A stretch of DNA of 64,000 bases from Candidatus Cloacimonadota bacterium (GTDB lineage Bacteria > Cloacimonadota > Cloacimonadia > JGIOTU-2), in assembly GCA_030613025.1 (NCBI GenBank), contig JAUWMT010000001.1, positions 16,013 through 80,012 on the forward strand. Direction: 5' to 3'. The position numbers and the translations under genes were made by a program. Below the pieces are notes generated by a model. It ran no database searches. It saw nothing but the letters and a program-made list of their open reading frames with translations, and was not told where the DNA came from. Positions within the stretch are counted from its first letter, which is position 1. Each line of letters begins with the position of its first letter. Of the stretch, positions 14,458-39,828 are shown one piece after another.

Positions 14458-14856
14458 ATGGCAGATAATAAAAAGATACTTATAATTGATGACGAGCCGG
14501 ACGCAATTGCATTTTCAGAAGCAATGCTTTCTGAGCTTGGAGAATTTGAAATCGAGACTGCTATTAATGGTCTCGAAGGATTGCAGAAAGCCGAAGCGGT
14601 CAAGCCCGACCTGATCATTTTAGATGTGCAGATGCCTGTCATGAATGGTTTTCAAGTTTTTAAGGAACTTAAAAAAAATGATGTAACTGACACTATTCCC
14701 GTTATCATGCTTACCGGCATGGCAGCGACTACCGGACTTCGATATGATGCAAAAGACATGGGCATAACCCTTGGCTCCGAGCCCGAAGCTTATATCGATA
14801 AACCAGTTGAGCCAGAAGAGTTTCATAAAACCGTGAGCTCTATTCTCGGATTGTAA
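14458..14856 (+). CDS. Stand-alone response-regulator receiver (CheY-like)
   Basis: A 132-aa protein with the acidic pocket IIDDEPD, the phospho-acceptor aspartate in LIILDVQMP, and the motif YIDKP. Confidence 0.85.
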   Translation: MADNKKILIIDDEPDAIAFSEAMLSELGEFEIETAINGLEGLQKAEAVKPDLIILDVQMPVMNGFQVFKELKKNDVTDTIPVIMLTGMAATTGLRYDAKDMGITLGSEPEAYIDKPVEPEEFHKTVSSILGL

Positions 14857-14920: not shown

Positions 14921-17023
14921 ATGAAAAAGAAAAAACGAGGACTACAAAAGCAAATTTTAGCTCTCTATTTTTTGTTCACCTTTTCCCTTGTATTCATTCT
15001 GATCTTCAGCGTCTGGCAGCTTACCAAACTCGGTATTTCAGAATTTGAATATGAGAGAATTTCCCGCACGCTTACAAATCTAAAAACACTTCAGCTCGAT
15101 TATACAAACATGCTGAATAATTTTACCTCTGAAATCGCAACTACCCCTGATCTTATTACTTCAGCAGAAAATCAAGATGCTGTATCTATTCAATCAATAC
15201 TTAATTCCTATGATGATCATCCTCTCGCTAGCTACATGGCTCTCTTTGATGCAAATGGCACTATGCTTTATGGTGAATATTGGGAGCTTGTTGAATCTTT
15301 TCTGCCGGAAATGCTCTCTTTAGCAAAACAGAATACAACACAAGGTTTTTCTGCAAATTTTTCTAATAAGATATTCTATTTTGCCTACGCTCCGCTTTAT
15401 TCTGAAAACGATCAAGAGAAAACATTTTTAGGACTTTTTCTCAACGTAAGCCAGATCACTCCTTCTGAAATTGGAGCAGCTCGGGATCCTCAAATTTTTC
15501 TTTTGCCTTTTTCAGTGCCTCTCAATCCGGAGCAGGAGATCCTCAAGAAAATCATTCCCGAACTCGATAAAAAACTTCCCGCTGTATTAAAAACTAAAAA
15601 CCGTGAATCTGTTTTACGCTTAAATGCAGAAACTGCTGTTGGTCTTCTTATTAATTATAACATATTCGATGAGCCCGCTTCACTCACAGTGTATATTTAC
15701 GATCGAGAATTCAATAAATTCTCTCGCCAAAGCTTGCTCTTCTTTTTCCTTATTCTCCTAGCATCTACACTTGTTATCGTGAGTTTCCTTAGCAACTGGT
15801 TCAGTAGAAAAATAATGCGGCCAATAAAACAGATAAGTGAAAAAATGCAGAGGATTGAGAAAAACCCACTTGGTATTGAATATATTGAGGATGAATATGG
15901 CGGTGAGCTGAGCAATATGGTTTCTGCATTCAGCTCTATGAACAAAGCTCTTGTTGAATATCATAAATCTCTTCTGGAGTACAAAGTCCTTACTGATAAT
16001 ATTGATATTGGTGTACTGTGGATGGACTCAAAAATGAATATCCTTATTTGCAATCCAAGTGCAATGGACATTCTTGAACTCATATCCAATGATGAGATCA
16101 TCGGCAAGAATCTATCCGAATTTATCCGGTTAGATGAGGGTCTATTATCGATGGCTCATGAAGACAGCTTGACTCTTCCTCGACTCGAAATTAACTTTCC
16201 GGGGAAAAAGAAGTTCGTAAAATTCGTTATCCTGAATATTAAAGCTGTTGATGACACTATCGGCTTACGCATGGTTGCAACCATAACCGACATAACACAT
16301 GAAATAAATGAAAAAAGAGCCCGTGAAGCGCTTGAGATGGAAATCATAAAGAGTAACAAATTAGCTGAAATCGGAAGAAGGGTCGAGGGTGTGGTGCACA
16401 ATATGAACTCACCACTTAATTCAATTCTTGGGTATGCCCAGCTTGTAAAAAAAGAATATAAATACAATGACGATGTTGATAAGATAATTGATGCTGCAAA
16501 AAATATTTCACAATCCGTAAAAACTCTGTTACGAAAAGTGCAGCAGGACAATATTTCTATGATGCGCCCCATTGACATCAATCAGCTTATCGGGCAGGAA
16601 CTCGAGCTGTTGGAGCACAATCTTTTCTTTAAGCATTATGTTTTGTTAGAAAAAAATCTTTTTAAAGAACTCCCAACTGTGAAAGCGGTATATAGCGACA
16701 TTAGCCAGAGTTTTACTAACCTTGTAAATAATGCCATCGAGGCGATGCATGACAGCAAAGAACGAAATATCTGGGTACGTACATATCAAACTTCGGACTT
16801 TATCGCAATAGAAGTGCGCGATAGTGGAGAAGGTATTGAAGAGAAATATCAATCTAAGATATTTGAACCTTATTTTACATCGAAAAAGGGAAAAGAACAG
16901 GGCGGCTTTGGCCTTGGTCTTGCGATCTGTAAGAACATTGTCGAGCGTTATGGTGGTTATATTACCGTGCGCTCAGAACCGGATAAAGGAAGTACTTTTA
17001 CAATATTTCTTCCCTATGAATAA
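14921..17023 (+). CDS. Membrane sensor histidine kinase with a large extracytoplasmic domain and a PAS domain
   Basis: Two transmembrane helices flank a periplasmic domain of about 250 aa. This is followed by a PAS domain, the H-box VHNMNSPLNSILGYAQL, and a HATPase_c domain with the N and G boxes. Confidence 0.85.
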   Translation: MKKKKRGLQKQILALYFLFTFSLVFILIFSVWQLTKLGISEFEYERISRTLTNLKTLQLDYTNMLNNFTSEIATTPDLITSAENQDAVSIQSILNSYDDHPLASYMALFDANGTMLYGEYWELVESFLPEMLSLAKQNTTQGFSANFSNKIFYFAYAPLYSENDQEKTFLGLFLNVSQITPSEIGAARDPQIFLLPFSVPLNPEQEILKKIIPELDKKLPAVLKTKNRESVLRLNAETAVGLLINYNIFDEPASLTVYIYDREFNKFSRQSLLFFFLILLASTLVIVSFLSNWFSRKIMRPIKQISEKMQRIEKNPLGIEYIEDEYGGELSNMVSAFSSMNKALVEYHKSLLEYKVLTDNIDIGVLWMDSKMNILICNPSAMDILELISNDEIIGKNLSEFIRLDEGLLSMAHEDSLTLPRLEINFPGKKKFVKFVILNIKAVDDTIGLRMVATITDITHEINEKRAREALEMEIIKSNKLAEIGRRVEGVVHNMNSPLNSILGYAQLVKKEYKYNDDVDKIIDAAKNISQSVKTLLRKVQQDNISMMRPIDINQLIGQELELLEHNLFFKHYVLLEKNLFKELPTVKAVYSDISQSFTNLVNNAIEAMHDSKERNIWVRTYQTSDFIAIEVRDSGEGIEEKYQSKIFEPYFTSKKGKEQGGFGLGLAICKNIVERYGGYITVRSEPDKGSTFTIFLPYE

Positions 17024-17038
17024 AAGTGAAATTTAACT

Positions 17039-18463
17039 ATGAAAAATGATGAGATCCAGACAGAATTCTTCAAACAAAATGCCAAAATCCTCATAGTAGA
17101 TGACGAACAGGATACATTGGATATTTTCCGCCGTCACCTCGAAGATGAATATCATATCGACACAGCTCATTCTGCTGAAGAAGCACTTGAAAAGTTAGAG
17201 AACAACACCTATCATATTGCAATGACGGATATGGTTATGCCGGGAACAGACGGTATCGAGCTTCTGACACAGATAAAGAAACGCTTGCCCCATGTTGCCG
17301 TTGTTATGATAAGCGGAAAAGCTACCATCGGAATGGCTGTTGAAGCTATGAAAATCGGCGCTGAAGAATTTATAGAAAAACCGGTTGAAGATCTCGATCT
17401 GCTGAAGATCATCATAAAAAAAATCCTCAAAACCAAGTGGCAGCATGAGGAAATTAAGCGCCTTAGAAGTATTCTAGCTCAGGAATTTGACCGCACCCAG
17501 ATTATTGGCAACAGTCTTGCAATTCAAAAAGTCATGGAAAAAGTGAAGCGCATCGCCCATCTTGACACGACTATTCTTGTTACCGGTGAAACGGGAGTGG
17601 GCAAAGATCTTTTTGCCGATCTTATCTATCTTAATAGTAAAAGAAAAGCGCAAAAATTTGTAACAGTTAACTGTGGCGGATTACCAGAAAATCTTCTTGA
17701 AAGTATGCTTTTTGGTCATAAAAAGGGCTCGTTCACTGACGCTATAAGAGATAAAGTCGGCTATTTCCAGGAAGCAGACGGGGGTACGCTTTTCCTTGAT
17801 GAAATAACAGAAACCAACAAGACTTTTCAGGTAAAACTTCTGCGCGTTCTTGAGAAAGGTGTGGTCAGACCGGTCGGTGCTGATATGGATATTGAAGTTA
17901 ATGTGCGCATTATCACCTCAACAAATAAGGACATTGAAAAGGAAGTAAAAGATGGCAATTTCCGTCAGGATCTTTACTACCGCCTTAATGTCATTCATCT
18001 TCACATCCCACCTCTTCGCGAAAGAAGAGAGGATATTCCGCTTCTTACCAATGCATTTTTACGAGAGTTTAGAAAGAAATATGACAAATCAAACCTTGAA
18101 ATCTCTGATACTGTTATGTCCGTCCTTATCTCCCGGGAATGGGAAGGAAATATTCGTGAACTGAAAAATACAATCGAGCATGCGGTTGCAATGGCAACTC
18201 ATAATAAAATTGTGCTGGAAGATCTTCCGGGCAATATATATATGAAGCTTGGAGCTGTTGAGAATAAATTAAACAACCTGGTGAACTTATCTTTTTCTGA
18301 AGCGAAGGATACTTTTGAAAAGAATTATGTTGAAGAAATTCTGATAAAATGTAATGGTGATGTGACAAAAGCATCAGAACTTTCCGGTATTAAGCGTCCA
18401 AATCTCTACGAAAAATTTAACAAGCACAATATTGACGTGAACAAGTATAGAAATAATTCGTAA
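17039..18463 (+). CDS. Sigma-54-dependent response regulator (NtrC/PilR-type bacterial enhancer-binding protein)
   Basis: An N-terminal receiver domain (LIVDDEQD, with Asp in AMTDMVMPG) is followed by an AAA+ sigma-54 interaction domain with the Walker A motif GETGVGKD, the GAFTGA-like motif GHKKGSFTDA, and ESELFGHEKG-like residues. A C-terminal HTH is present. Confidence 0.9.
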   Translation: MKNDEIQTEFFKQNAKILIVDDEQDTLDIFRRHLEDEYHIDTAHSAEEALEKLENNTYHIAMTDMVMPGTDGIELLTQIKKRLPHVAVVMISGKATIGMAVEAMKIGAEEFIEKPVEDLDLLKIIIKKILKTKWQHEEIKRLRSILAQEFDRTQIIGNSLAIQKVMEKVKRIAHLDTTILVTGETGVGKDLFADLIYLNSKRKAQKFVTVNCGGLPENLLESMLFGHKKGSFTDAIRDKVGYFQEADGGTLFLDEITETNKTFQVKLLRVLEKGVVRPVGADMDIEVNVRIITSTNKDIEKEVKDGNFRQDLYYRLNVIHLHIPPLRERREDIPLLTNAFLREFRKKYDKSNLEISDTVMSVLISREWEGNIRELKNTIEHAVAMATHNKIVLEDLPGNIYMKLGAVENKLNNLVNLSFSEAKDTFEKNYVEEILIKCNGDVTKASELSGIKRPNLYEKFNKHNIDVNKYRNNS

Positions 18464-18701: not shown

Positions 18702-18717
18702 TGGCACGATATTTGTA
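18702..18717 (+). promoter_or_regulatory. Candidate sigma-54 (-24/-12) promoter for the pilin-like gene
   Basis: The element reads TGGCAC-gatat-TTGT. It matches TGGCAC-N5-TTGC at the -24 GG and the correct spacing, but the -12 GC is replaced by GT. It lies about 70 nt upstream of the ATG at 18789. Confidence 0.4.
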
Positions 18718-18788: not shown

Positions 18789-19190
18789 ATGGGAACTCAA
18801 CAAATTCTGCTCATTGTTTTGAGCGTAATTATCGTAGGTATCGCTGTGGCTGTTGGTATTACAATGTTTAATGCCCAGTCAGTGAATTCAAACCGCAATG
18901 CATGTATTGCTGACATGAACAACTTCGCTGCCAGTGCTCTTGCATTTTACAAAACCCCCACAAGTCATGGTGGTGCAGGTTCAACAATAGGAAATGTTGT
19001 GGATTCTACAGTTTGCAACTATATTGGTGTAGGTTATACTGCCCCTAATCAACTCAGTACTGATAATGGTACATACACTATTACATTGGCTGGCACCGTC
19101 CTTACTTTTACAGCTGCTGGAACTGAATCAGGTGTAACCCCTGTAACTACTGTTGATTTTAGTTCTAGTGCCATTGCAACTACACCATAA
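18789..19190 (+). CDS. Small pilin-like protein with an N-terminal hydrophobic helix. It is a putative major subunit of the downstream type IV filament system and has no canonical prepilin leader.
   Basis: The 133-aa protein starts MGTQQILLIVLSVIIVGIAVAVGITMF and continues into a Gly/Thr-rich, probably beta-stranded, C-terminus that contains 2 Cys. A strong ribosome-binding site AGGAGG precedes it. It is followed by an intrinsic terminator and sits directly upstream of pilC- and pilB-like genes. Confidence 0.5.
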   Translation: MGTQQILLIVLSVIIVGIAVAVGITMFNAQSVNSNRNACIADMNNFAASALAFYKTPTSHGGAGSTIGNVVDSTVCNYIGVGYTAPNQLSTDNGTYTITLAGTVLTFTAAGTESGVTPVTTVDFSSSAIATTP

Positions 19191-19224
19191 TAATTGCGTA
19201 CTACCTAAGTAATTTAAAAGGCAA

Positions 19225-19254
19225 ATATGGGAGGTTCGCACCTCCCATATTTTT
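19225..19254 (+). terminator. Rho-independent terminator
   Basis: A perfect 11-bp stem ATATGGGAGGT / ACCTCCCATAT with a 4-nt loop is followed by TTTTT. Confidence 0.8.
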
Positions 19255-19414
19255 CACCTTTTTTTCACCTAAAAGTCCACTGAACAAATATGAACCGGTG
19301 ATAAGTCAATTGTGAAATGACGTAAATTGTTTGAAACCTCATCCTAACCTTCTCCCAGTGAGGAGAAGGCAATATAAGGAATGTCAAAATTCAATTATCA
19401 CTTCCAATCTAAGC

Positions 19415-19446
19415 TTGACTTGACATTAGTATAGTTTTCATAGAAT
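19415..19446 (+). promoter_or_regulatory. Possible sigma-70-type promoter for the pilC-like gene
   Basis: An overlapping TTGACT/TTGACA lies at 19415-19425 and a TAGAAT at 19441-19446. The spacer is 15 nt, which is suboptimal. Confidence 0.25.
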
Positions 19447-19493
19447 AGATTAAGGAATTTTTGATAATCAATATTATTAGAAGTAAATAAAAA

Positions 19494-20846
19494 ATGCTCA
19501 AAGAATTTCGCTATACCGGAAACAATTCAGCCGGTAAACCCGTGCAAGGCGTTGTTCTTGCCAGTAACAAATCAAGCGCAAAAAAACTAATCCACGACAT
19601 AGAAAGCAAAGAAAGTATTTCTGTTAATAAAATTGATCAAAAGATTAATTTCAGATATAAAATAAAGCTGCCAAGCGGCAAAAAGGTAAAGGGAAAGCAA
19701 GCGGCTTTTTCCAAGCAGGAACTTTCACGGGCACTCTCCAATTTCGGATATGCCAATGCAAAGATCGAACCGGTCCTTTTTGATTTTCAATCGAAACCCT
19801 CATTTGCAAATATCCTGATGTTTGTGAACCTCAGTTCGTTTCTGCTTAAAGAAAAAATGACTTATGATAAGATCCTTCGTATGCTTGCAGATGAAGAGAC
19901 AAATCCAACGCTGAAAGCCACATTAAAGAAGATCGAAAGCGAACTCAAGAAAGGGAAGGAAGGAACAGAAGTTTTCAACCGATATGCAGATGTGTTCGGC
20001 AAGTTTCCTGCTTATATGCTTGGTCTTGCTACTAAAAGTGGAAATATGGCAGAAGTGTATGATGCTACATCCAAGTTTATGGAAAGGGATATGGAGTATA
20101 AGAAAAGTCTGCGTCAGGCACTGATGACGCCCATGTTCACAGTTATTGCGATGATAGCAGCAGTACTATACTATATTATTTCAATCTTCCCCAGCACTGC
20201 AGAACTTTTTATTAAATCCGGAATTGAGGTGCCCCCGCTGACTGCTGCAACCTTGCGGCTGAGTGATTTTTTTGGCGCTAACTGGTGGTGGATGGCGTTG
20301 ATGATCATAATACCAATTATTATTGTATTACTATGGTGGCGCACACCTGATGGGCGGGTTTGGCGTGATAGGATGATCATCAAACTGCCGATCATAGGAA
20401 AGCTTCTTCATAAATCAAGTATTGAAATTTTCTGCCGTGTTTTTGCGGCTATTTATTCCGGCTCCGAAAATAATATCGAGACTATCCAAGCTGCTGCAGA
20501 GGCATGCAGAAATGCACACATGGAAAAAAATATCAAAGAAATAACTATTCCCCTGATGTTGAAAGAAGGTATGTCCCTCGTGCCTGCGCTTGCTGCAGCA
20601 AAGGTGTTTAATCAGACAACTTTAAGCAGATTTAAAGCAGGTTCTGAAACCGGTAATGTACTCACTTCAGCTCAGCAAATCGCAAAATTTTATGAAAAAG
20701 AAACAACTTATAAAATGCAGAATTTAATTGCATCTATCCAAACACTCATTGGGGCATTTATAGGTATTGTCATAACTGCATTAACCATTGTTTCTGCGGA
20801 AGTCGCAACGGTTTCACCCAAAACACCCGGTATGCATGGTATCTAA
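19494..20846 (+). CDS. pilC: Type IV pilus / T2SS platform protein (PilC/GspF family)
   Basis: The N-terminal region FRYTGNNSAGKPVQGVVLASN is typical of PilC. Two T2SSF repeats are present, one around LLKEKMTYDKILRML and one around IFCRVFAAIYSGSENNIETI. There are three transmembrane helices and the protein is 450 aa. Confidence 0.8.
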   Translation: MLKEFRYTGNNSAGKPVQGVVLASNKSSAKKLIHDIESKESISVNKIDQKINFRYKIKLPSGKKVKGKQAAFSKQELSRALSNFGYANAKIEPVLFDFQSKPSFANILMFVNLSSFLLKEKMTYDKILRMLADEETNPTLKATLKKIESELKKGKEGTEVFNRYADVFGKFPAYMLGLATKSGNMAEVYDATSKFMERDMEYKKSLRQALMTPMFTVIAMIAAVLYYIISIFPSTAELFIKSGIEVPPLTAATLRLSDFFGANWWWMALMIIIPIIIVLLWWRTPDGRVWRDRMIIKLPIIGKLLHKSSIEIFCRVFAAIYSGSENNIETIQAAAEACRNAHMEKNIKEITIPLMLKEGMSLVPALAAAKVFNQTTLSRFKAGSETGNVLTSAQQIAKFYEKETTYKMQNLIASIQTLIGAFIGIVITALTIVSAEVATVSPKTPGMHGI

Positions 20847-20863
20847 GTAATCAAGGAAAATAT

Positions 20864-22648
20864 ATGTTAGGTAAATCACGCTTAGGAAAATCACTCGTTG
20901 ATAATGGAATCATTGATAAAGATATTCTTAACAAGGCGCTTATTATTCAGGCAGACGAGGACCCATACAATCCCAGAAGGTTAGAAGATATTCTTGTTAC
21001 GGACCTTAGGATCAAACATGATGATGTATACGGTCTTCTGGCTGATTTGTATGCTTTCAGAAAAGTTGATATTAATATAGATAAAATTGACCAAACACAA
21101 ATTGATCATACAAAAGATATACTTGCAAAATTTCCAGATGAACTGAAAAGAGAATTGCTCTATAAAAAGGTGCTTCCTTATCAGATTGCGCAAGGACGTC
21201 GATCAACACTCATCCTTCTTGCAGCTGACCCGACTGACAAAATTGTTGAGAAAATCCCACTCAATACTGAATTTAAAAAATATGAGGTTGCCTATTGTAA
21301 GCTCTCTACTATTGAAGAGCTTATCACGCTCATTGCTCCTCAAAAAAATGAATTCTTAGAACTCCTCAGCGAAGCCGGTGAGCAGATAGAGGAAGTAAAA
21401 GAAGAGGGCCAGGAAGAGAAAGTCGATGAATATGCTCTTGATGATGAGATCAATAAGAGCTTACTCGTCAATCTCTTTGAGGGTAGTCTTATTGAAGCTG
21501 TTAGAAAAGGCGCAAGTGACATTCATATCATACCATATAAACGCTCAAATGTAGACTTTTTATTCCGGGTGGATGGCAAACTTCATCAATGGCACCGACA
21601 GGAAAAAACCTCTCCTGAAGCCATTGCAGCAGTGGTAAAAGATAGGACAAACGGGATTGACAGATTTGAAAGAGATAATGCACAGGATGGTTTTGCACAG
21701 CGTATTGTTGATGGCTATTTGATCCGATTTCGTATTTCTGTTCTTCCAATTATCTCTGCTGAGTACGAACGCCGCTTTGAAAGTATCGTGATACGTGTAG
21801 TTGATGACAGAAATGTCATCACAGACCTTCAAAAATTGGGTCTTCAAAAACAAGCAGAATCAGATTTCTTAAAAGCAGTTAATAAATCAAAAGGCATTGT
21901 ACTTCTGACCGGTCCTACTGGAAGTGGTAAAAGCACGACCCTCATGGCTGCGCTTCATCATGTGATCGATCCTACTAGAAATGTGCTCACCTGCGAAGAC
22001 CCTGTCGAGTATGTTATCAAAGGAGCACGGCAATTGAAGATCGGAGCGAAGATGACCTTTGAGCAGGCAATTCGCTCAATCCTTCGTCATGATCCGGATA
22101 TTGTAATGGTTGGTGAGATTCGTGATAAGATCACCGCAGATGTAGCAGTAAAACTTGCAAATACCGGCCATTTAACTTTCTCTACACTACACACAAATGA
22201 TGCCCCAAGTGCGATATCCCGTTTATATAAAATGGGTGTTGAGACCTTCCTTCTTGCCTATGCAATGAATATTATTATTGCCCAGCGTCTTGTCAGAAAA
22301 CTCTGCCCCGAATGCAGGCGTCCACTTTCGCGAGACAAATACAAAGGAGCTCTCGAACTGGGTCTCACGGAACAAGATTTGAAAAAGGGGTTAGTATATG
22401 AAGCTGGTCCCGGCTGTAAAAAATGTATGGATGGTTATAAAGGACGCGTGAACATCTGCGAAGCTCTATATTTTACAGATGAGATCAGAAAAGCGATCAT
22501 GGAATCCGGTAAAGAAATCGACGAAGATAAAATCCGCAAAATTGCAGAAAGTCAAGGCATGCTTTCTCTTCATGATTCCGGACTGGATAGAATCCGCAAA
22601 GGACTTACCTCTGTTTCTGAGGTGTCCTATGCGACTTCTGAAGGATAA
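20864..22648 (+). CDS. pilB: Type IV pilus assembly ATPase (PilB/GspE family)
   Basis: An N-terminal GspE_N-like domain is followed by the Walker A motif LLTGPTGSGKSTTL, Asp and His boxes (VGEIRD), and the tetracysteine motif CPECRR...CKKCMDGY. The protein is 594 aa. Confidence 0.9.
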   Translation: MLGKSRLGKSLVDNGIIDKDILNKALIIQADEDPYNPRRLEDILVTDLRIKHDDVYGLLADLYAFRKVDINIDKIDQTQIDHTKDILAKFPDELKRELLYKKVLPYQIAQGRRSTLILLAADPTDKIVEKIPLNTEFKKYEVAYCKLSTIEELITLIAPQKNEFLELLSEAGEQIEEVKEEGQEEKVDEYALDDEINKSLLVNLFEGSLIEAVRKGASDIHIIPYKRSNVDFLFRVDGKLHQWHRQEKTSPEAIAAVVKDRTNGIDRFERDNAQDGFAQRIVDGYLIRFRISVLPIISAEYERRFESIVIRVVDDRNVITDLQKLGLQKQAESDFLKAVNKSKGIVLLTGPTGSGKSTTLMAALHHVIDPTRNVLTCEDPVEYVIKGARQLKIGAKMTFEQAIRSILRHDPDIVMVGEIRDKITADVAVKLANTGHLTFSTLHTNDAPSAISRLYKMGVETFLLAYAMNIIIAQRLVRKLCPECRRPLSRDKYKGALELGLTEQDLKKGLVYEAGPGCKKCMDGYKGRVNICEALYFTDEIRKAIMESGKEIDEDKIRKIAESQGMLSLHDSGLDRIRKGLTSVSEVSYATSEG

Positions 22649-22650
22649 TA

Positions 22651-23085
22651 ATGACATCCGGACAAATATTCCTCATTCTTCTTGCAATGATTCTGTTTTC
22701 AACCATCTATCTGACAACGTACAACAGTCTCTTTGATCAGGCGGATATTGCGTATAAAGGGATGTATCTTTTGAACGGACAGAAAATTACCGATAAATAT
22801 TTTCAGGAGATCGAAGCAAATATACTTGGAGAAATAGTATTGTTTGATTCATTGCAGCATATCTATAACGGTTTGTCAGACACCCTTACTGTCTCTGATA
22901 TAGTCTATAATATAAACATTTCTACAACTCCATGCACTCAAAGCGGTGCAGATACGACTACCGTAACACCTGAATTCATTCGAATAGATATAAGCATGTG
23001 GGCAATCCACCCCGGCGGAGACACGCTCTGGATAGGTATGCCCGAATTTCCGATAAGTAAAGTTTTTGTGGACCTGTATTATTAA
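22651..23085 (+). CDS. Minor pilin-like protein with an N-terminal hydrophobic helix
   Basis: The 144-aa protein starts MTSGQIFLILLAMILFSTIYL and is immediately downstream of pilB. Confidence 0.4.
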   Translation: MTSGQIFLILLAMILFSTIYLTTYNSLFDQADIAYKGMYLLNGQKITDKYFQEIEANILGEIVLFDSLQHIYNGLSDTLTVSDIVYNINISTTPCTQSGADTTTVTPEFIRIDISMWAIHPGGDTLWIGMPEFPISKVFVDLYY

Positions 23086-23087
23086 TT

Positions 23088-23642
23088 ATGATTACATTAT
23101 TAGAATCAATCGCCGCAACGATAATTGGTGGAATATTTATTCTCACCATGATCACCTCGATCATTAATATTCAAGCGGTTGGTGTGAATACAAGTCAGCA
23201 GATTCAGCTGGTAGAAATTTCCGAAGATGTGGTCTCTGTGATAGAAAGTTATCTTTCTCTTGTGGGTGCCGGCGTGGCAGATTCAGTTGATGCGATCATA
23301 TCTACTCAAGACACCTTATTCAGCTACTCCTATGCTGATAGCGTTGGAGGATCTCCACACGTTGTTAATATGACGCAAGAAAATATTAACGGAGCAAAAC
23401 AGCTCTCTGTGTACGTAGATGGTAGCGTAACTCCTGCTCTTGGTCCCTTTGAATTATCTGATTTTGGTATTCAGTTCACCTATTATGATATTAATGACAA
23501 TCCAAATCCGGCAGATTCTCTTGTACGTTATGTTCAAATGATTATGGAATTTGAATATGATACCTACCGAGAGGATATAGATAAAAGATTTATTCGTCAT
23601 CGAATTCGAATCTGGAAATATTTTAAGAATCTATATTTATAG
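23088..23642 (+). CDS. Minor pilin-like protein with a TLLE (T-L-I-E-like) N-terminus
   Basis: The 184-aa protein starts MITLLESIAATIIGGIFILTMI. A Glu at position +5 relative to Ile2 mimics the mature type IV pilin N-terminus F-T-L-I-E, but only Met precedes it. Confidence 0.45.
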   Translation: MITLLESIAATIIGGIFILTMITSIINIQAVGVNTSQQIQLVEISEDVVSVIESYLSLVGAGVADSVDAIISTQDTLFSYSYADSVGGSPHVVNMTQENINGAKQLSVYVDGSVTPALGPFELSDFGIQFTYYDINDNPNPADSLVRYVQMIMEFEYDTYREDIDKRFIRHRIRIWKYFKNLYL

Positions 23643-23725
23643 TAATATGTATTTATTAATAAAAGTATTGACAAAAAGGCAAATAAAATGTCTTTTGCTG
23701 GTAGAAAATATTTTTTGATTAGGGG

Positions 23726-25594
23726 GTGCCCATGGGCAAAGCAGTTTTGATAATGATAATACTCCTTGCCGTGATCGTCGTTGTGGCGACTGTAACTGTT
23801 TCAGTTGAAAGAAAGGCTGATGTTATTCCAGAAAAGCTCGCAGAGAATGAAGTACGATCCGACCTGATAAATCTTGGAGCTTATGCTCTCAAGTGGGGTA
23901 TTAAACAAGTCCGCAATGAAAATATCACCGAATCAAATTCATCCATTTTTGATGATGAAAGTAGTTCTTATCATTATGCATTTTTTGATGTTCCTGCTCT
24001 TGACGGAAGTATCGATATGATCACCTATGAATTTGGCGATACTCTGACTGTCGAAGGAGGTGGTGGTGAAGGAGAGGAAGAAGAAGAGGAGGAAGAAGGC
24101 GTTACAATACCATCTCTTGATATGGTTTTTGCAAATGGAGCAATTACTCTTACCGGCAGCGCGAGTATCAATGGAACAACAGGAACTAACTCCACTGTTG
24201 ATAACAGTGTTAATTTTGCATGGAGCACACAGGTTGATGGTGATTTTTATGTAGGACCCGGCGCTGATTATACAAGTGTGATCAACTCTGCTGGGTGGGG
24301 ACGTGTACCAGAGGATAACATTACGGGTACAATTTCTAATCTACCTGCAACGAGAACTTATCCTCTTCCCACTTATCCTAATTTCCCGGAACTAACCGAT
24401 CAAGGTTCTTTCAGTACACCATGGACTCCTTCAGGAGAATATCTTATTGATGATGACGGATATTATTCTTCAATAAGTGCCACAAGCAGCAGAACGATCA
24501 CGATCGATGTGGGATCCGGTACCAGAAGAATAGTTGTCGGAAGTCTTAGTGTTGGGCAAGGATATATTGAACTTCTGGGAACCGGCGATCTTATATTTTA
24601 TGTTGAAAATTCATTTTCCCTTACAGGAAGCAGTATTATCAATACCGGCGGTGATGCAAGCAAGGTTCATATGTACTACTCGGGTGCAACAGACCTGAAT
24701 TTCGCCGGTGCGACCGCATATAATGGTTCTATTTATATTGAAACTGCCAATATTCACATAGGTGGTTCGGGCGGTATTACTGGTCATATTATTTGTGGCG
24801 GCTCAACGGTTGACGTCACTGGTGCAGCAAATGCCTATGTGAGAGCACTGTATGCCCCAAACGCAGCAGCATCAATTACCGGCTCCGGAAGTATTAGCGG
24901 AATCCTTGTAGCAAACACCATTTCTGTTTCTGGCAGTGGAAATATAACTGCTGATAACAGCTGGGCAGATCCGGTACCCGACATCGAAGATGATGAAGAT
25001 GAAGAAGCTTCAGAAGTTGCTGGATTTTATACAGTCCAGCTTGACATCACGGCACTTGTAAGTGAAGATGAATATGGAAATGAAACGGATCATACAAGCT
25101 TCGCAACTGTTCTCTTCAGCTATTCCGGCGGTGAATCAGAAGAGGAAGAAGAAACTCCAGCCCTTTCAATGGAAGCAGATCTTCATATAAATCCCACAAA
25201 CAATTCTTCTAAACGTTTTCAGATGCAAACGCCAAGTGGGCAGATAGATAGAGGAACGCTCCTTTCGGGCGGTTCATCATATACATACTCTGGTTCTGCA
25301 ACAGAAATTAGACTACAACCAAAATCAGACGGAAGAACTATTACTGTAAATGGAAGCGACATAACCCTCGCCACAAGTACCGCTTATACAATAACCTCAG
25401 ACAGCATGACCGTAAATCTTAGAAACTCTCACGGACCTGGAAATGCAATGGGTCATTGGTGGATTGAAATAACCTGCACCGACCCGACAGTTTCACCAGA
25501 TCCGGGGCTTCCTGAACCTGAAGAGGAAGAACCGGAAGAAGAAATTGGAGAAATAACCTTAGAGGACATCGAAATCCTCTACTGGCAACCGTAA
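23726..25594 (+). CDS. Large pilin-like or tip-associated protein with poly-Glu tracts and Gly/Ser/Thr-rich beta-helix-like repeats
   Basis: The 622-aa protein has an N-terminal transmembrane helix MPMGKAVLIMIILLAVIVVVATV. It contains acidic runs (GGGGEGEEEEEEEEG, DIEDDEDEEASE, ESEEEEET, PEPEEEEPEEE) and a repetitive region (ITGSGSISGILVANTISVSGSGNITAD). A strong ribosome-binding site AGGGGGTG precedes it. Confidence 0.5.
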   Translation: MPMGKAVLIMIILLAVIVVVATVTVSVERKADVIPEKLAENEVRSDLINLGAYALKWGIKQVRNENITESNSSIFDDESSSYHYAFFDVPALDGSIDMITYEFGDTLTVEGGGGEGEEEEEEEEGVTIPSLDMVFANGAITLTGSASINGTTGTNSTVDNSVNFAWSTQVDGDFYVGPGADYTSVINSAGWGRVPEDNITGTISNLPATRTYPLPTYPNFPELTDQGSFSTPWTPSGEYLIDDDGYYSSISATSSRTITIDVGSGTRRIVVGSLSVGQGYIELLGTGDLIFYVENSFSLTGSSIINTGGDASKVHMYYSGATDLNFAGATAYNGSIYIETANIHIGGSGGITGHIICGGSTVDVTGAANAYVRALYAPNAAASITGSGSISGILVANTISVSGSGNITADNSWADPVPDIEDDEDEEASEVAGFYTVQLDITALVSEDEYGNETDHTSFATVLFSYSGGESEEEEETPALSMEADLHINPTNNSSKRFQMQTPSGQIDRGTLLSGGSSYTYSGSATEIRLQPKSDGRTITVNGSDITLATSTAYTITSDSMTVNLRNSHGPGNAMGHWWIEITCTDPTVSPDPGLPEPEEEEPEEEIGEITLEDIEILYWQP

Positions 25595-25598
25595 AATC

Positions 25599-26489
25599 AT
25601 GGGAAAAGCAATTCTTGTCATCTCTCTTTTGTTACTTACCGTCGTAGTAGGCATTGTCATCTCCAGCGGTAAACGTGGCGGTGACGTTCCGGAAATCATC
25701 ACTGATGATATTGCACAGATACAAGCACGCTCACTTTCAAATTATGCGCTTCAATATGGTATAAGACAGCTTCTGAAGGGAAATGTCACATTTGTAGACA
25801 GCACGCGCGGTACAATTAATAACTTTGCACCCCTCGATGTTTTAGATGGTACTATAGATAGTATTATTTATTCACCTGCTACCGATGGAACGATCCGTGT
25901 AGATTCTTATGTGAGTTATCTCGAGTTGGAATCTCTGGTTAGTCATCACGGTTATGCACGATTTGGTTTTTATACAGACGAGGGGGCGGTTCTTAGCATC
26001 ACCGCTGCAATTGTTACGGGTGGTTCAATAACTGTTAAAGCCCAAGCAGTTATTAGTGGTATAGTTGTTGAAGATTCCACCTTCGATTTTGCCGGTGTTT
26101 TCGGTATGACAGAACAAGAATTTAAGGATGAGTGTATCTCGCGGGGCTCGTATATTGAAACTCCTGCCAATAATGAACCAATGCCTGATAGTCTGACCTG
26201 GATGAATGACGATTTACGAGTCCAGAGTAACTGGTCAGGGGCAGGAATTCTCGTTGTGAATGGTGATTTTAATGCAACTGCTCAAATTACTTTTGACGGA
26301 ATACTGGTCGTTTTTGGCGAACTCACCATTGGGGCTCACTCTAATATCACCGGTGCTGTGTATGTGATAGGGGATGCAACAGTTGGTGCTCATGCTGTTA
26401 TTAGCTTCGATGCAGATGTTGTTTCGGACGCCTTTGATGCTCTTCCTATAAACATCTCTTTAGAAATAGCGGAGTGGAATGAAGGATAA
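25599..26489 (+). CDS. Paralogue of the preceding protein (pilin-like N-terminus, beta-helix-like C-terminus)
   Basis: The 296-aa protein starts MGKAILVISLLLLTVVVGIVISS, which resembles the MPMGKAVLIM... start of its neighbour. Its C-terminus ITGAVYVIGDATVGAHAVISFDADVV is similar to repeats in the neighbour. Confidence 0.5.
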   Translation: MGKAILVISLLLLTVVVGIVISSGKRGGDVPEIITDDIAQIQARSLSNYALQYGIRQLLKGNVTFVDSTRGTINNFAPLDVLDGTIDSIIYSPATDGTIRVDSYVSYLELESLVSHHGYARFGFYTDEGAVLSITAAIVTGGSITVKAQAVISGIVVEDSTFDFAGVFGMTEQEFKDECISRGSYIETPANNEPMPDSLTWMNDDLRVQSNWSGAGILVVNGDFNATAQITFDGILVVFGELTIGAHSNITGAVYVIGDATVGAHAVISFDADVVSDAFDALPINISLEIAEWNEG

Positions 26490-26514: not shown

Positions 26515-27414
26515 ATGGAGCAAATTAGATTATTAGATTCGGAAAAATTGATGTTTTTCTGGTGGTTAAAAATTCGCTGGTTTATTGTGCTCATACTTTT
26601 TGCGATCGGCTTACTTCGCATTGGCATGGTTAGCCAAACTATTCCTGTAGTCGTTTTTGTTGGTGCATTCCTCGGTATAAGCGTTCTCAATATTCTTTTT
26701 CATCTTCAGATCATTACTTCCAATAATATTATCGGAGCTACTCAGATCGTGCTAGATATTATTTTTGGAACCATAGTTGTTCATCTTACTGGTGGACTTG
26801 ACAGCTCGTTCGTTTGGATTTACCTCGTTGCGGTTGTCACTGCGAGTTTATCGATCGAAAAAGCAGGTGGTTTTATTGCGGCTATGATCGGAGGTATGAG
26901 CTTGCTGGTGCTAATTTTAATGTATAACTTCGGCTGGCTTTTGCCCGTTAATGGTAATGTATATAATTCAGATGTTGCGATCCAGACGATCTTTCTTATA
27001 TCCTACACGGGATTGTTCACTGTAATTGCTTTCATCTCAAGCTATACCAGCAATATAGTTAGAAAGCTTTCACTTAAAGTGCTGGAAGCGAATGACAAGC
27101 TCAAGAACCAGGAAGATTATTTACTGGATAAGGAAAAAAAGATGGTTATCGATGAAAAGCAAATCAAGGATTATAAAGAAGTCGTGCAAGTTTCGTCAAA
27201 TCTTGCTGGAATCGACCATGATATCAATAATCCTCTAAGCATCATCTCGCTTTCTTTAAGCAGAGTAAAAAGAGCGGCAAGCGAATATAATGATGAAAAG
27301 CTTCACAAATCCAGCAATCAAATTACAGAAGCGATAAATAAGATCAATGGTATCCTCGTACGGCTGCAAGATTTGAAGCGGCTACCTCTGATCAAGCAGG
27401 CAAGAAAAAAATAA
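26515..27414 (+). CDS. Polytopic membrane protein with a C-terminal HisKA (dimerisation/phosphoacceptor) domain and no ATPase domain
   Basis: About 5-6 transmembrane helices are followed by a coiled coil and the H-box NLAGIDHDINNPLSIISLSLSRV. The ORF ends about 60 aa later, so no HATPase_c domain is present. Confidence 0.6.
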   Translation: MEQIRLLDSEKLMFFWWLKIRWFIVLILFAIGLLRIGMVSQTIPVVVFVGAFLGISVLNILFHLQIITSNNIIGATQIVLDIIFGTIVVHLTGGLDSSFVWIYLVAVVTASLSIEKAGGFIAAMIGGMSLLVLILMYNFGWLLPVNGNVYNSDVAIQTIFLISYTGLFTVIAFISSYTSNIVRKLSLKVLEANDKLKNQEDYLLDKEKKMVIDEKQIKDYKEVVQVSSNLAGIDHDINNPLSIISLSLSRVKRAASEYNDEKLHKSSNQITEAINKINGILVRLQDLKRLPLIKQARKK

Positions 27415-27432: not shown

Positions 27433-28284
27433 ATGCAAAAACACATTTTAATCATCGATGACGAGGAAAGCATCAGAGAGCTGTGTAAAGAATTTTTGGA
27501 AGAAGACGGCTATAAGGTCACTCTTGCTGTTGACGGTCAAGATGGTCTTGATAAAATGAACTATGATGACTTTGATCTCTACATGATTGATATGGTCATG
27601 CCCCGCCTGGATGGGCTGGAAACCATGAAGCGTATCAAGAAGAAGCAACCCCTTGCCGTGATCATCATCACTACAGGATTTTCCAGTATCGAAGGTGCGG
27701 TAAAAGCAGTTCATGCTGGTGCGTTTCAGTATCTTTCCAAACCCATCAATGCAGAAGAACTTCTCGAAGCAGTAAAAAAGGGGGTGCAATATGGAGAAGA
27801 TCTATACGGTCCTCTTCAAAAAGCCTTTGAACCCGGAACTGAAGGCACAAAAAATGAGCCGGCTATGCTGCATGGATTCACCAAAGAAGAGAAGGTTGAT
27901 TTTTTGGCAATTGGAAGGGCACGCAAATTTGAAGCCGGTCAAACTATTGCTCTTGATAACGAAAACTCTGATTCAATCGTGCTTGTAGAATCCGGTGAAG
28001 TATCCATCTGGCTAAGTAATAACACCGTTGACTATCTCCGAAAGAATGATTCCTGGGCAGAAGAAAACTTCATACTGGCAAATTCCGAATTCACTACTCT
28101 TCGATCCGAAACAGCATGTATGATACGTTTTTTCGAAAGAAAGAAGCTTCTTGACTTCTTCGCCTACAAGGGCGAGCGTCTGATGAAACGGTTCATGATC
28201 AACCTCATTAATTGTCTCTTTTCAAAATGGAGAAAATCCATTCAACGTATTGTCATGCTCAAGCTCGTAACCGGAGAAAAATAA
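27433..28284 (+). CDS. Response-regulator receiver domain fused to a cyclic-nucleotide-binding-like (cNMP/Crp-type) domain
   Basis: The receiver domain has ILIIDDEES, the acceptor aspartate in LYMIDMVMP, and YLSKPI. The C-terminal ~120 aa (FLAIGRARKFEAGQTIALDNENSDSIVLVESGEVSIW...) resemble a cNMP-binding beta-barrel. Confidence 0.6.
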   Translation: MQKHILIIDDEESIRELCKEFLEEDGYKVTLAVDGQDGLDKMNYDDFDLYMIDMVMPRLDGLETMKRIKKKQPLAVIIITTGFSSIEGAVKAVHAGAFQYLSKPINAEELLEAVKKGVQYGEDLYGPLQKAFEPGTEGTKNEPAMLHGFTKEEKVDFLAIGRARKFEAGQTIALDNENSDSIVLVESGEVSIWLSNNTVDYLRKNDSWAEENFILANSEFTTLRSETACMIRFFERKKLLDFFAYKGERLMKRFMINLINCLFSKWRKSIQRIVMLKLVTGEK

Positions 28285-28358: not shown

Positions 28359-29573
28359 ATGGGTTTATCATTTACACCGGAATTGCTTGTTGGTTTACCC
28401 GAATACTTAACTGGAACAAACCGTTTCCAGAACATTAATAAAATCATAACCTACAATGCTGCGTGGCGTGAAGAAGCATACGAACATCTTCGTAAACTTC
28501 TCAAGTACATGCGGGAAATAGATGCTTCTGACCTTGATATTGGCGGTCCCGGCTCAAACAATAATGTGTGGTACAGAATTTACGGAACTAAATCGCCCAA
28601 CAAGGAGATGCCTCATTATAATAACGATGAGGTAACAGCGATCCTTCTCAGCGTGCTTTCCGATGACCAGAAAGTGCTTCTTTTTAAAGATAAAAACGTT
28701 GACCTTTCTGTCGGTATGGTTCTTGAAGAAGGAGAACGATCGAGCAGGTTCCGTAGCGATATCTATTATGAAAGCAATGTACTTGTAGGAAACTTCCGTA
28801 GGATCAATCAAAATCTCTTTAAAATTGAATCTCTTGGATTTCCACTACCGATCATGCAAAGAATGGATCTGCAATATGAAAAATCCGGGCTCATCCTCAT
28901 TACCGGTATTACCGGTTCGGGAAAGAGCAGCACTTTGGATTCTATTATAGACATGAACAATCATAATAATGATGCACATATTATAATTCTTGGCGCACCC
29001 ATTGAGTATGTTCATAAGTCTGATAGGTGTATTCTTCGTCACAGGGAGGTCGGTGAAGATGTGCTTTCCTTTAAGAATGGTGTTGTTCAAGCTTTACGGC
29101 AAGATCCCGACATTATAATTGTCGGCGAGATGAGAGAGCCGGACACCATCGCCAGAGTGCTGGAAGCAACAGACAGTGGACATAAAGCATTTTCAACTCT
29201 GCATACAAGCTCTGCTATTGATAGTATTCATAGAATTGTAGGTGAATTCCCGACAAGAGAACAGGAGCGAATTCGTCTTCGCCTTGCTGATACGCTCTCT
29301 GTCATTATTTCTCAAAAATTGGTCCCAAATATACAAGGCAAACGAAGTCTCGCAAAAGAAATTCTTTCTGTGACACCTTCTGTAAAAGCAGCAATCCGAA
29401 ATCAGAATATTAATGAGATATATCAGATGATCACTGAAGGAAAAAAATACGGCATGATAACACTCGAACAGGATCTTTTCAATCTGCATAAGAAAGGTGA
29501 AATCTCAAAAGAGGTTGCTATGAACTACTCTAATAATAGAAAAAGAATGCAGCAGCTTCTAACTTACTCATAA
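28359..29573 (+). CDS. pilT: Type IV pilus retraction ATPase (PilT/PilU family)
   Basis: Contains the Walker A motif LILITGITGSGKSSTL, the Asp box GEMRE, and the His box AFSTLHTSSA. The protein is 404 aa with an N-terminal extension of about 60 aa and no tetracysteine motif. Confidence 0.85.
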   Translation: MGLSFTPELLVGLPEYLTGTNRFQNINKIITYNAAWREEAYEHLRKLLKYMREIDASDLDIGGPGSNNNVWYRIYGTKSPNKEMPHYNNDEVTAILLSVLSDDQKVLLFKDKNVDLSVGMVLEEGERSSRFRSDIYYESNVLVGNFRRINQNLFKIESLGFPLPIMQRMDLQYEKSGLILITGITGSGKSSTLDSIIDMNNHNNDAHIIILGAPIEYVHKSDRCILRHREVGEDVLSFKNGVVQALRQDPDIIIVGEMREPDTIARVLEATDSGHKAFSTLHTSSAIDSIHRIVGEFPTREQERIRLRLADTLSVIISQKLVPNIQGKRSLAKEILSVTPSVKAAIRNQNINEIYQMITEGKKYGMITLEQDLFNLHKKGEISKEVAMNYSNNRKRMQQLLTYS

Positions 29574-32425: not shown

Positions 32426-33301
32426 ATGCCTTATGCAATAAGAAACTCTATTGTTCTTGGTTTACTGCTTATCCTCGTATTTGTGGGAGGGCTGCTTTCA
32501 AATTCTCAATCTGTAAAGCGGCTTGAAAAGTACAAAACGGCATTGGTGAAAAACCAGAAAACACTCGCCCAGCTCAATAAAACTTATCCCGATCTTTGTA
32601 AAACGGACGAGATCATTGCATCATTAGATGACATGAAAAAAAAGGCACTTGAAGATTATAAAATAATTCTCAAAAATGACAATCCCAGCCAAACATATCA
32701 ATACCTCATTGACATAACCGAAACCTTTACTCCAGACTTTAATTTTGACTTTAAGGTCGCCCAGGTGGGCAAAAAGGGTGATCTTTCCTATAATTCATAT
32801 ACTTTGAATGGTTCGGGAAATGTTGAGTCGCTGCATTTCTTTATTTATCAGGTTGAATATCAGGCACCACTTTATATTATCGAATCCGTAAGAATTTCAG
32901 AAACATCAGTTGCTCTTAAAGATACAGTCGATTTTTCCATGAAGCTGATTGTATATTATGACCAACAAACCGGCACCTCAATTTCAGAAATTCCTTTCAG
33001 AAGTTTCAGTTACTCAAACCTGGTTTATAATCCCTTCTGCTCACAGATCCATGCACCGATAGATCGATCTGAGGAAGAAAAGTATATCAACATAAATACC
33101 GCTCTTATAATTGGTCTAACCCCGGATAAGATTTTCCTTCGGGACATTAATGGTATGATCGTAACCCTTGTCCCGGGTTCGAGAGTGGCATATGGATATC
33201 TTAACTATATTAACTGGAAACAGCAATGTGCTGTATTTAATATTAATCGAATTGGTATTACACAGGAAATCAAAATATATTTACAAGGAAATGAATTATG
33301 A
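32426..33301 (+). CDS. PilO/PilN-like bitopic inner-membrane protein
   Basis: The 291-aa protein has the N-terminal transmembrane helix SIVLGLLLILVFVGGLL followed by a coiled coil. It lies between the PilM/N-like gene and the secretin. Confidence 0.45.
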   Translation: MPYAIRNSIVLGLLLILVFVGGLLSNSQSVKRLEKYKTALVKNQKTLAQLNKTYPDLCKTDEIIASLDDMKKKALEDYKIILKNDNPSQTYQYLIDITETFTPDFNFDFKVAQVGKKGDLSYNSYTLNGSGNVESLHFFIYQVEYQAPLYIIESVRISETSVALKDTVDFSMKLIVYYDQQTGTSISEIPFRSFSYSNLVYNPFCSQIHAPIDRSEEEKYININTALIIGLTPDKIFLRDINGMIVTLVPGSRVAYGYLNYINWKQQCAVFNINRIGITQEIKIYLQGNEL

Positions 33302-34494
33302 AAAAAATAATTCTATTACTTTTAATTTCATCACTTTTCGCAGGTTCTTTATCCGCACAGTGGATCTATGAAGATTTTTCATATCAGGAACTGGTTTCCA
33401 TGACCCGCGACACACCTTTCCCGGAAGCGGTAAGGGCGCTCGAGATAATGTCCGCTCAGTTTGAAGGCAAAAAGATCATTAACATGAGTACTTTCCCCGG
33501 AGAGATCGGCGTTCCAATTAAAGAAGTGTACTGGAAGAATGCACTCTTTCTTATCATTAATTTCAATGATCTTGTGCTCGAAGACCTTCCCGGTTCATAT
33601 CTTATTACCGATGCGGCTGAAGCTATCGAAGAAGAATTAGAAAAGGATGCCGAGATAACGCCGGATACCAAACAAGTTAAAATAACTTCAATCTTTTTTA
33701 AAGCAGACAGGTCTGTACTGAAAAGCGTTGGTATTGACTGGTCCACTCTTATCAATGGCAAGGTCATTGCATCTATTAACTTCAAAGGTAGTGGTGTTGG
33801 ACAGGAGATTTTCAATGCTACTGCTGCCACAAAGTTAGAGTCTGGAGATATCTCAATTGATATTAATACACTCTTCAGCATTCTGGAATCTCATCAGAAA
33901 GGTGCTATTATTGCACGTCCATCCATTGTTGTTGTTTCCGGTAAAACAGGTCAGATCCAGGTTGGTCAGGATTTCTCTGTGAAAAAGAAAGATGATGCTG
34001 GTAATGTAACTGATGAATTCTTCCAGACTGGTGTCATCATGACAGTAACTCCTACGGTTGTCGAAAATGAAGATTTTGAAGCAATTCATCTTGAAGTAAG
34101 CGTACAAAAAAGTTCTGCTACTCCCGGCGAGCTTAGCACTATCATTAATAAAAGCGAATCTATTACAGAAGTTTTGCTTTATGACGGTGAAGAAACTGTT
34201 ATGGGTGGTTTATATGATACGGATGAAACGGTTACCCGCATTGGTATTCCCATTCTCAAGGATCTTCCATGGTGGGTTTTGGGCATACGCTACCTGACGG
34301 GCTCAAACAGGCATGAAACCAATGTTCGAGAAATGATTGTCATCATAAAAGCTGAAATTTCTAAACCTATCAACGAGCGAAAGAAAGAAGCACTTTCCAC
34401 ACAGCAGCAAATTGAAGAACATCGTCTTAAGAACCAGAATGCTAAAGACCTTTTTAAAAATGATGAGGAAGACAATGATACAAAGAATAAATAG
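33298..34494 (+). CDS. pilQ: Short secretin (GspD/PilQ family C-terminal domain)
   Basis: A signal peptide MKKIILLLLISSLFAGSLSAQ is followed by the secretin signature RIGIPILKDLPWWVLGIRYLTGSNRHETNVREMIVIIKAEI. The protein is only 398 aa. Confidence 0.75.
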   Translation: MKKIILLLLISSLFAGSLSAQWIYEDFSYQELVSMTRDTPFPEAVRALEIMSAQFEGKKIINMSTFPGEIGVPIKEVYWKNALFLIINFNDLVLEDLPGSYLITDAAEAIEEELEKDAEITPDTKQVKITSIFFKADRSVLKSVGIDWSTLINGKVIASINFKGSGVGQEIFNATAATKLESGDISIDINTLFSILESHQKGAIIARPSIVVVSGKTGQIQVGQDFSVKKKDDAGNVTDEFFQTGVIMTVTPTVVENEDFEAIHLEVSVQKSSATPGELSTIINKSESITEVLLYDGEETVMGGLYDTDETVTRIGIPILKDLPWWVLGIRYLTGSNRHETNVREMIVIIKAEISKPINERKKEALSTQQQIEEHRLKNQNAKDLFKNDEEDNDTKNK

Positions 34495-36304: not shown

Positions 36305-36340
36305 TTAAATGTTTAAAAAATATTCATGCAGGAGGATGCA

Positions 36341-39766: not shown

Positions 39767-39776
39767 ATAATACTTT

Positions 39777-39810: not shown

Positions 39811-39828
39811 AGAAATACAGGGACAACC

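Follow-up and report, generated by a model that had tools for sequence, protein, structure and literature searches.

Here we describe a single type IVa-like pilus locus in a stretch of 64,000 nucleotides (nt) from a Candidatus Cloacimonadota bacterium (the window), in which one major and four minor pilins begin with almost no leader ahead of their membrane helix. A leader removed by a dedicated peptidase and a glutamate at position 5 (Glu5) are treated as defining features of the type IV filament superfamily. The assignment of the region at 13.2-34.5 kb, plus strand throughout, to one such locus is well supported. The five proteins are probably the major subunit and the four minor subunits of a type IV pilus, unusual as pilins but representing no new kind of filament. 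Comparison with relatives indicates that the near-absent leader is a fixed, phylum-wide trait in Cloacimonadota, and that the class III signal peptide has here lost its charged leader.

The initial annotation of the window had described five proteins that open with a few residues followed by a hydrophobic helix of about 20 residues. All five open reading frames (ORFs) were confirmed at their coordinates, and 1-4 residues precede the helix. They encode the major pilin of 133 amino acids (aa; 18789..19190, N-terminus MGTQQILLIVLSVIIVGIAVAVGITMFN) and minor pilins of 144 aa (22651..23085, MTSGQIFLILL...), 184 aa (23088..23642, MITLLES...), 620 aa (23732..25594, MGKAVLIM...) and 296 aa (25599..26489, MGKAILVIS...). 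The same annotation had asked whether mis-assigned start codons might conceal true leaders upstream, and none was found: in-frame stops occur 5, 3, 9, 3 and 12 codons upstream of the 133-, 144-, 184-, 620- and 296-aa starts, respectively, and no ATG, GTG or TTG lies between stop and start, with the sole exception of a GTG two codons upstream of ATG 23732 in the 620-aa ORF. Initiation at this GTG (position 23726) would give a 622-aa product. As it overlaps the AGGGGG ribosome-binding site (23721-23726) that lies 5 nt before ATG 23732, the ATG appears the likelier start, in agreement with the MGKAIL start of the 296-aa protein and with the MG[KR] start of 59 out of 62 relatives. An AAGGAGG site stands 7 nt ahead of the ATG of the 133-aa gene.

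To collect relatives, one genome per GTDB species was scanned, yielding 182 relatives from which 79 loci were kept, independently assembled and nearly all labelled Cloacimonadota; in addition, 1.84 billion cluster representatives were searched with HMMER (threshold E<=0.001; 1750 members). These data bear directly on the possibility that the starts are mis-called and that canonical, longer leaders lie upstream. Such a reading could appeal to the general risk attached to start-codon assignment and to the two candidate starts of the 622-aa ORF. Against it, the upstream stops are close and the Shine-Dalgarno (SD) sites are strong and properly spaced; among 105 MG-x-QQ sites in other loci, 99 have an SD-like site and 92 have no possible upstream start; and profile position 1 falls on the first residue of almost every one of the 150 representatives. 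Unless the organism uses a non-standard initiation codon, the upstream-start reading is refuted, and we assign it a negligible probability.

A strongly hydrophobic 19-residue stretch beginning within the first eight residues is found in 10 of the 49 genes of the window, five of which are those encoding the pilin-like proteins. In four of the other five, Lys or Arg residues precede the stretch (MKKKSKK, MKHRR, MDKK and MPYAIR), the ATP synthase b subunit being the one without them. The residues ahead of the helix are Met-Gly in the major pilin and the two PilX-like proteins, Met-x-x-Gly in the 144-aa protein and Met alone in the 184-aa protein, so that the Gly-containing leaders comprise 2-4 residues with no Lys or Arg. 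The statement in the initial annotation that none of the five has a Gly at -1 consequently holds for the 184-aa protein only, since in the other four a Gly directly precedes the helix (MG|TQQ, MTSG|QIF, MG|KAV and MG|KAI). Its description of the leaders as minimal and non-canonical was borne out: the starts are correctly assigned, none of the five proteins matches N_methyl (PF07963) or TIGR02532 at E<=1 in Pfam and NCBIfam scans, and the major pilin, with its M-G-x-Q-Q start, carries Gln at the place of the expected Glu5. The PilX-like MGK proteins have no acidic residue near the N-terminus, as is the case in GspK. All five families are absent from the Pfam and NCBIfam pilin families, and pilin models of Pfam or NCBIfam matched neither 24 relatives of the 144-aa protein nor 10 PilX-like relatives.

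Conservation is concentrated in precisely this part of the major pilin. Across 29 homologues that share 50-78% identity overall, no variation is seen at 24 of the 133 positions; the first 30 residues hold 18 of these, M1, G2, T3, Q4 and Q5 included. The MG-x-Q-Q start was present in 131 of 145 newly listed cluster representatives (one reads MGNQE) and in essentially all major-pilin copies of the 79 Cloacimonadota loci; the homologues that have a source name carry the label Cloacimonetes or Cloacimonadota. Gly2 is invariant in the major family and, as part of MG[KR], nearly so in the PilX-like family. The 144-aa family follows the pattern M-x-x-(x)-[Q/E/D] ahead of the helix, with the Q, E or D at position 4-5, Glu or Asp at position 5 in Cloacimonadaceae-type sequences (MNLMEM...), and a Gly ahead of the polar residue in some members only. 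The 184-aa family reads M-x-x-h-h-[D/E], with the acidic residue at position 6 from Met and no conserved Gly. One typical MGTQQ pilin cluster (L033, JAOZSR010000007.1) is labelled Candidatus Neomarinimicrobiota rather than Cloacimonadota, which could be a binning or labelling error or could mean that the trait reaches beyond the phylum. Up to six MGTQQ major-pilin paralogues stand in tandem in several loci (L029:6159-10958 on contig CAXXDU010000002.1, L054, L025, L037 and L077), and the 3.44-Mb contig CAXXDU010000002.1, with at least seven MGTQQ pilin genes, holds at least one further major-pilin copy ~60 kb from its array.

The identification of these proteins as pilins rests on fold, N-terminus and genomic setting. 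The 133-aa protein has an ordinary type IV pilin fold, with an extended N-terminal alpha-helix (~50 residues) against an antiparallel beta-sheet, and the 184-aa protein has a GspJ/PilW fold, in which the pilin helix is followed by the two sheets typical of GspJ. The pilin identity proposed in the initial annotation was thus substantiated by fold for these two, and for the 144-, 620- and 296-aa proteins is suggested by operon position and N-terminus. Its further proposal, a distinct family of filament subunits, is not upheld: the folds are those of ordinary pilins and GspJ, and the genes lie among those for PilB, PilC, PilT and the secretin. We infer from gene order, size and N-termini that the 144-aa protein would occupy the GspI/PilV position and the 620- and 296-aa proteins the GspK/PilX position. 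The latter two close the minor-pilin block, lack acidic residues near the N-terminus as GspK/PilX proteins do, and cross-match each other in phmmer comparisons (E ~3e-07), the 296-aa protein being a paralogue of the 620-aa one. No Pfam or NCBIfam match was obtained for the 144-aa protein and no Pfam match for the 296-aa protein; in Pfam scans PilX_N (PF14341) and T2SSK matched neither of the GspK/PilX candidates nor their PilX-like relatives, and the 620-aa protein matched DUF7305 (PF23981, E=1e-13). One observation counts against assigning the locus to a type IVa-like pilus: Pfam recognised no PilM, PilN, PilO or PilP in the N-terminal 560 aa of a 946-aa protein or in a 291-aa protein encoded further along the locus.

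An alternative is that the hydrophobic N-termini mark unrelated envelope proteins, acting there as ordinary Sec signal peptides or signal anchors, or that they belong to a filament unrelated to type IV pili. The lack of matches to Pfam and NCBIfam pilin models would fit such a view, as would the outcome of a Foldseek search against the PDB, which gave no significant match; in principle, an A-V-G within the helix might also be taken for a signal peptidase I site. Against a Sec-type signal peptide, which we exclude, stand the N-terminal 28 residues: no part of the major pilin is better conserved, contrary to what a signal peptide would show, and in the structure model they form a single continuous helix; moreover, the genes are embedded between pilB/pilC and pilT. 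We consider this alternative, taken as a whole, highly improbable.

Profile searches of PDB sequences with the 184-aa family returned nothing, and those with the major pilin gave just a weak match to the geopilin helix (E=0.6) and a borderline match to the Legionella effector RavD. In the latter, the best PDB sequence match, residues 34-132 of the major pilin (window 18888-19184) align with residues 69-163 of RavD (PDB 6njd/6nii; E=0.002), probably by chance. The globular head domain of the major pilin also recurs as the C-terminal part of longer proteins whose N-termini are unrelated (P0256, P0273, P0274, P0285 and P0310), which include a zinc-ribbon/transmembrane protein, a kinase-like protein and lipoprotein-like proteins.

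The C-termini of the PilX-like relatives contain Laminin_G_3 (concanavalin-like) or DUF7305 modules. These C-terminal modules are exchanged among genomes at the PilX position (L005, L045, L060, L029 and L033, as compared with window 23732-25594 and L063), a pattern that is typical of modular tip pilins and suggests exchangeable tip adhesins. The 620-aa protein also contains runs of Glu, namely GGGGEGEEEEEEEEG (window about 24045-24100), DEDEEASE/EEEEE and EPEEEEPEEE, which appear to act as separators of modules.

The remaining genes of the locus encode a pilus machine that, by the scores of its components, is divergent yet recognisable. A PilB-type assembly ATPase (20864..22648; PF00437, E=4e-99), a PilC/GspF-type platform protein (19494..20846; PF00482, E=5e-23), a PilT-type retraction ATPase (28359..29573; TIGR01420, E=4e-94) and a short secretin of the PilQ/GspD family (33298..34494; PF00263, E=6.5e-28) are all present within the one locus, as is expected of a type IVa system. 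The equivalog models for the machinery proteins all fall below their curated cut-offs: the top NCBIfam model for the assembly ATPase, TIGR02538 (PilB), scores 405 bits against a cut-off of 676 bits, TIGR02120 and PilC models match the platform protein at ~1e-41, and the PilT match reaches 315.7 bits against 319.1 bits.

These components also bear on the possibility that the locus encodes a type II secretion system (T2SS) or a competence pseudopilus, with the five proteins as pseudopilins. The ATPase and the platform protein match GspE and GspF models nearly as well as those of PilB and PilC, the minor set fits GspI-J-K, and the secretin is short. Opposed to this are the PilT-family retraction ATPase within the cluster, the sigma-54 promoter on the major pilin gene together with PilS/PilR-like regulators (see below), the tandem arrays of major-pilin paralogues in some relatives, and the absence of GspC, GspL, GspM, ComEA and ComEC near the locus in Pfam scans; we judge a T2SS or competence pseudopilus very unlikely. 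A pilin class of the Tad/Flp or archaeal type does not fit either: PilB and PilT are the best-scoring models for the pilus ATPases (the TadA model gives E=7e-16 and the FlaI model E=2e-13) and the Flp motif (G/A-TAIEY) is absent from the proteins.

How such short N-termini might be matured depends in part on the peptidase available. Within the window, prepilin peptidases were sought by Pfam among ORFs of their size class (~210-310 aa), and all ORFs of the window and of the 79 loci were searched by phmmer with a possibly imperfect Pseudomonas aeruginosa PilD query. Neither these searches nor a search for the GxGDxK motif found a prepilin (A24) peptidase in the 64-kb window or the 79 loci (1.17 Mb), and no credible canonical prepilin motif G-[FM..]-[ST]-L-x-E was present among 6560 ORFs in 1.17 Mb. 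According to the supplementary KEGG tables of a 558-genome survey of the phylum (ISME J 2026; PMC13082233), which also reports expression of pilus genes in a digester Cloacimonadota, pilD (K02654) occurs in 451 or 475 of 558 Cloacimonadota genomes, depending on the annotation method, and pilC in 457 or 499. Since K02654 is about as frequent as pilC and none lies at the loci, Cloacimonadota are reported to encode a standard PilD that is unlinked to the pilin locus, and the atypical peptidase invoked by the initial annotation is unneeded. In the same tables gspG appears in about 8 of the 558 genomes and the KEGG orthologues (KOs) for cpaA, comC and pilE are unlisted, so that the pilins described here would be the sole obvious PilD substrates in the phylum; a pilA recognised by KEGG is found in just 13 of the 558 (PMC13082233).

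From these data we infer a scheme in which the unlinked PilD would clip Met-Gly, a leader shorter than any other known for this enzyme class, from the major and PilX-like pilins, and in which the 144- and 184-aa families, having no conserved Gly, may stay uncleaved. Cleavage of Met-Gly by PilD has, in our estimation, almost an even chance of being correct. It is favoured by the conservation of Gly2 in the major and PilX-like families, Gly at -1 being the one residue that PilD requires, by the retention of pilD at the frequency of pilC, and by the ability of the archaeal peptidase PibD to cleave engineered leaders of 3-4 residues, as short as 3 (PMC4307647). Several points speak against it, beginning with the lack of a peptidase at the loci. 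An uncharged leader of two residues is shorter than that of any substrate with demonstrated cleavage, and the pre-helix Gly is unconserved in the 144- and 184-aa families, two of four families. Were the cut to fall after Gly2, position +1 would be Lys or Arg in the PilX-like proteins and would vary in the major pilin; and the Gln or acidic residue at position 5 from Met, both in the major pilin (MGNQE included) and in the 144-aa family, suits an uncleaved register.

These last features are also the basis of a different interpretation, namely that the pilins are leaderless: Met1 would be the mature +1 residue, Gln5 or Glu5 would stand at the canonical position 5, and no endoproteolysis would occur beyond possible deformylation or Met excision, with PilD kept for N-methylation or for other, undetected substrates. 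The strict M1-G2-x3-Q4-Q5 start of the major pilin, the Q, E or D at column 5 from Met in the 144-aa family (as in MNLMEM and MNMMDM), the absence of basic residues or a conserved Gly from the 144- and 184-aa families, the lack of a linked peptidase in all 79 loci and leaders below the 3-residue minimum shown for PibD are all in accord with it. The methyltransferase activity of PilD is dispensable in the systems studied and is hence a weak reason for keeping the enzyme. It also counts against the leaderless interpretation that pilD is retained at about the frequency of pilC across the 558 genomes with no other known substrate class present, and that the invariant Gly2 is precisely the residue PilD needs at -1. 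Furthermore, the register of the minor pilins is loose, with Q at position 4 or 5 in the 144-aa family and the acidic residue at 6 in the 184-aa family. We regard leaderless pilins as a possible but doubtful explanation, and assign the remaining probability to mixed or other schemes.

The major pilin gene appears to have its own promoter. A sigma-54-type promoter (TGGCACGATATTTGTA, 18702..18717, plus strand) lies 87 nt upstream of its start, and a motif of this class was found 55-101 nt upstream in 34 of 102 major-pilin copies of other loci, as compared with 0.007 expected per 250 nt. On the 3' side of the gene, an intrinsic-terminator-like hairpin, ATATGGGAGGT-tcgc-ACCTCCCATAT followed by TTTTT (19225..19254, plus strand), was read from the sequence. 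Upstream of the promoter, the locus opens with a GAF kinase (13227-14438) and a single-domain response regulator (14458-14856), both assigned from Pfam and the ORF listing. These are followed by a sensor histidine kinase with HAMP-PAS-HisKA-HATPase architecture in Pfam (14921..17023), located 5' of a PilR-like sigma-54-dependent response regulator (17039..18463) with REC (PF00072), Sigma54_activat (PF00158, E=8e-66) and HTH_8 (PF02954) domains.

A second set of regulators is encoded inside the pilus operon, where it separates the minor-pilin genes from pilT. The protein encoded at 26515..27414 combines a PilS-like six-helix membrane domain (PF25323 6TM_PilS, E=4e-05) with HisKA (PF00512, E=7e-06), both matches being slightly under their cut-offs, and no ATPase domain was detected in it by Pfam. 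The next gene encodes a response regulator that also has a cyclic-nucleotide-binding domain (27433..28284; PF00072, E=2e-30; PF00027, E=3e-07). Downstream of pilT, the 946-aa protein mentioned above (29581..32421) has C-terminal TPR repeats, its only matches, and lies in the position of the PilM/N/O alignment proteins; from this position it may take their place. The 291-aa protein (32426..33301), without a Pfam match, has an N-terminal hydrophobic segment that would anchor it in the membrane and is encoded directly 5' of the secretin.

Directly beyond the secretin (window 34412-40545), the ORF of an LVIVD-repeat/fn3 protein overlaps the end of the secretin gene, and the region also encodes two proteins bearing C-terminal sorting domains of type IX secretion, one of them a 1146-aa beta-helix/CarboxypepD_reg protein. 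On the other side of the locus, within the F-type ATP synthase operon (window 5768-6499, minus strand; L081:5364-6359), one c-subunit gene encodes 243 aa and matches the ATP-synt_C hairpin three times, and after it comes an ordinary c-subunit gene of 79 aa that stands by itself; it is unusual for a triplicated c subunit to accompany a single one. Extension of the window by Logan contigs revealed no further genes of interest.

The steps of pilus function that we propose derive from established type IV pilus biology. The sigma-54 promoter and the PilR-like activator would drive transcription of the major pilin gene. The N-terminal helix would hold each of the five proteins in the inner membrane, and the four minor pilins would make up a priming and tip complex, in which the 620- and 296-aa proteins would serve as modular tip proteins with variable, adhesin-like C-terminal modules. 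Assembly of the major pilin into a filament passing through the secretin would be the work of PilB and PilC, and retraction of the pilus that of PilT.

The closest known counterparts are the type IVa pili of Pseudomonas aeruginosa, Myxococcus xanthus and Thermus thermophilus, which consist of PilA and FimU-PilVWX with PilB/C/T/Q and PilS-PilR/sigma-54 control. The Cloacimonadota system resembles them in its assembly ATPase, platform protein, retraction ATPase, secretin, sigma-54 activator and PilS-like membrane domain, in its single small major pilin under its own promoter with a minor-pilin block downstream, and in its pilin and GspJ/PilW folds. It departs from them in having 1-4 uncharged residues instead of a basic leader of 5-25 residues, Gln in place of Glu5 in the major pilin, an unlinked pilD, no N_methyl/TIGR02532 match, and the 946-aa TPR protein in place of recognisable PilM/N/O/P. 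Compared with the GspI-GspJ-GspK tip of T2SSs (PDB 3ci0) and the PilW-like TTHA1219 of Thermus (5g23), the minor pilins described here match no T2SSI, T2SSJ or T2SSK model in Pfam and include two K-position paralogues with DUF7305 or lectin-type modules, their likeness to GspI and GspK being one of position. Streptococcus sanguinis makes modular pilins (PilB, which has a vWA module, PDB 7b7p, and PilC, which has a lectin module) whose canonical leaders are removed by PilD, and which differ from those of Cloacimonadota in module types and phylum. For the leaders, a parallel is offered by the class III signal peptides that PibD, FlaK or EppA process in archaea: these are very short, often have Gln at +1 and are not strict about Glu5; yet they keep Lys or Arg before a Gly/Ala cleavage site, whereas the leader of the Cloacimonadota major pilin is Met-Gly at most, and the machinery here, with its PilT and secretin, is of the bacterial type IVa kind, unlike archaeal systems.

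Our literature search found no paper on shortened or leaderless pilins, and none that deals with a Cloacimonadota prepilin peptidase in its main text; published work on the phylum merely lists pilus genes or speculates on conductive pili. Because Pfam and NCBIfam miss these pilins and KEGG finds pilA in so few of the genomes, claims of 'e-pili' or direct electron transfer for the phylum rest on poorly characterised pilins. The Cloacimonadota offer a natural case in which the leader is Met-Gly or less and the major subunit has Gln5, with the rest of the machine conventional. The lineage should therefore allow the roles of the leader and of Glu5 in membrane orientation, assembly timing and charge neutralisation in the filament core to be tested, as well as the minimal substrate of PilD. 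If the pilins did prove to be leaderless, a whole phylum would build retractile type IV pili without a cleavable leader and with Gln5 replacing the 'universal' Glu5; assembly would then be independent of cleavage by the prepilin peptidase, and PilD would be kept for another function, for example N-methylation.

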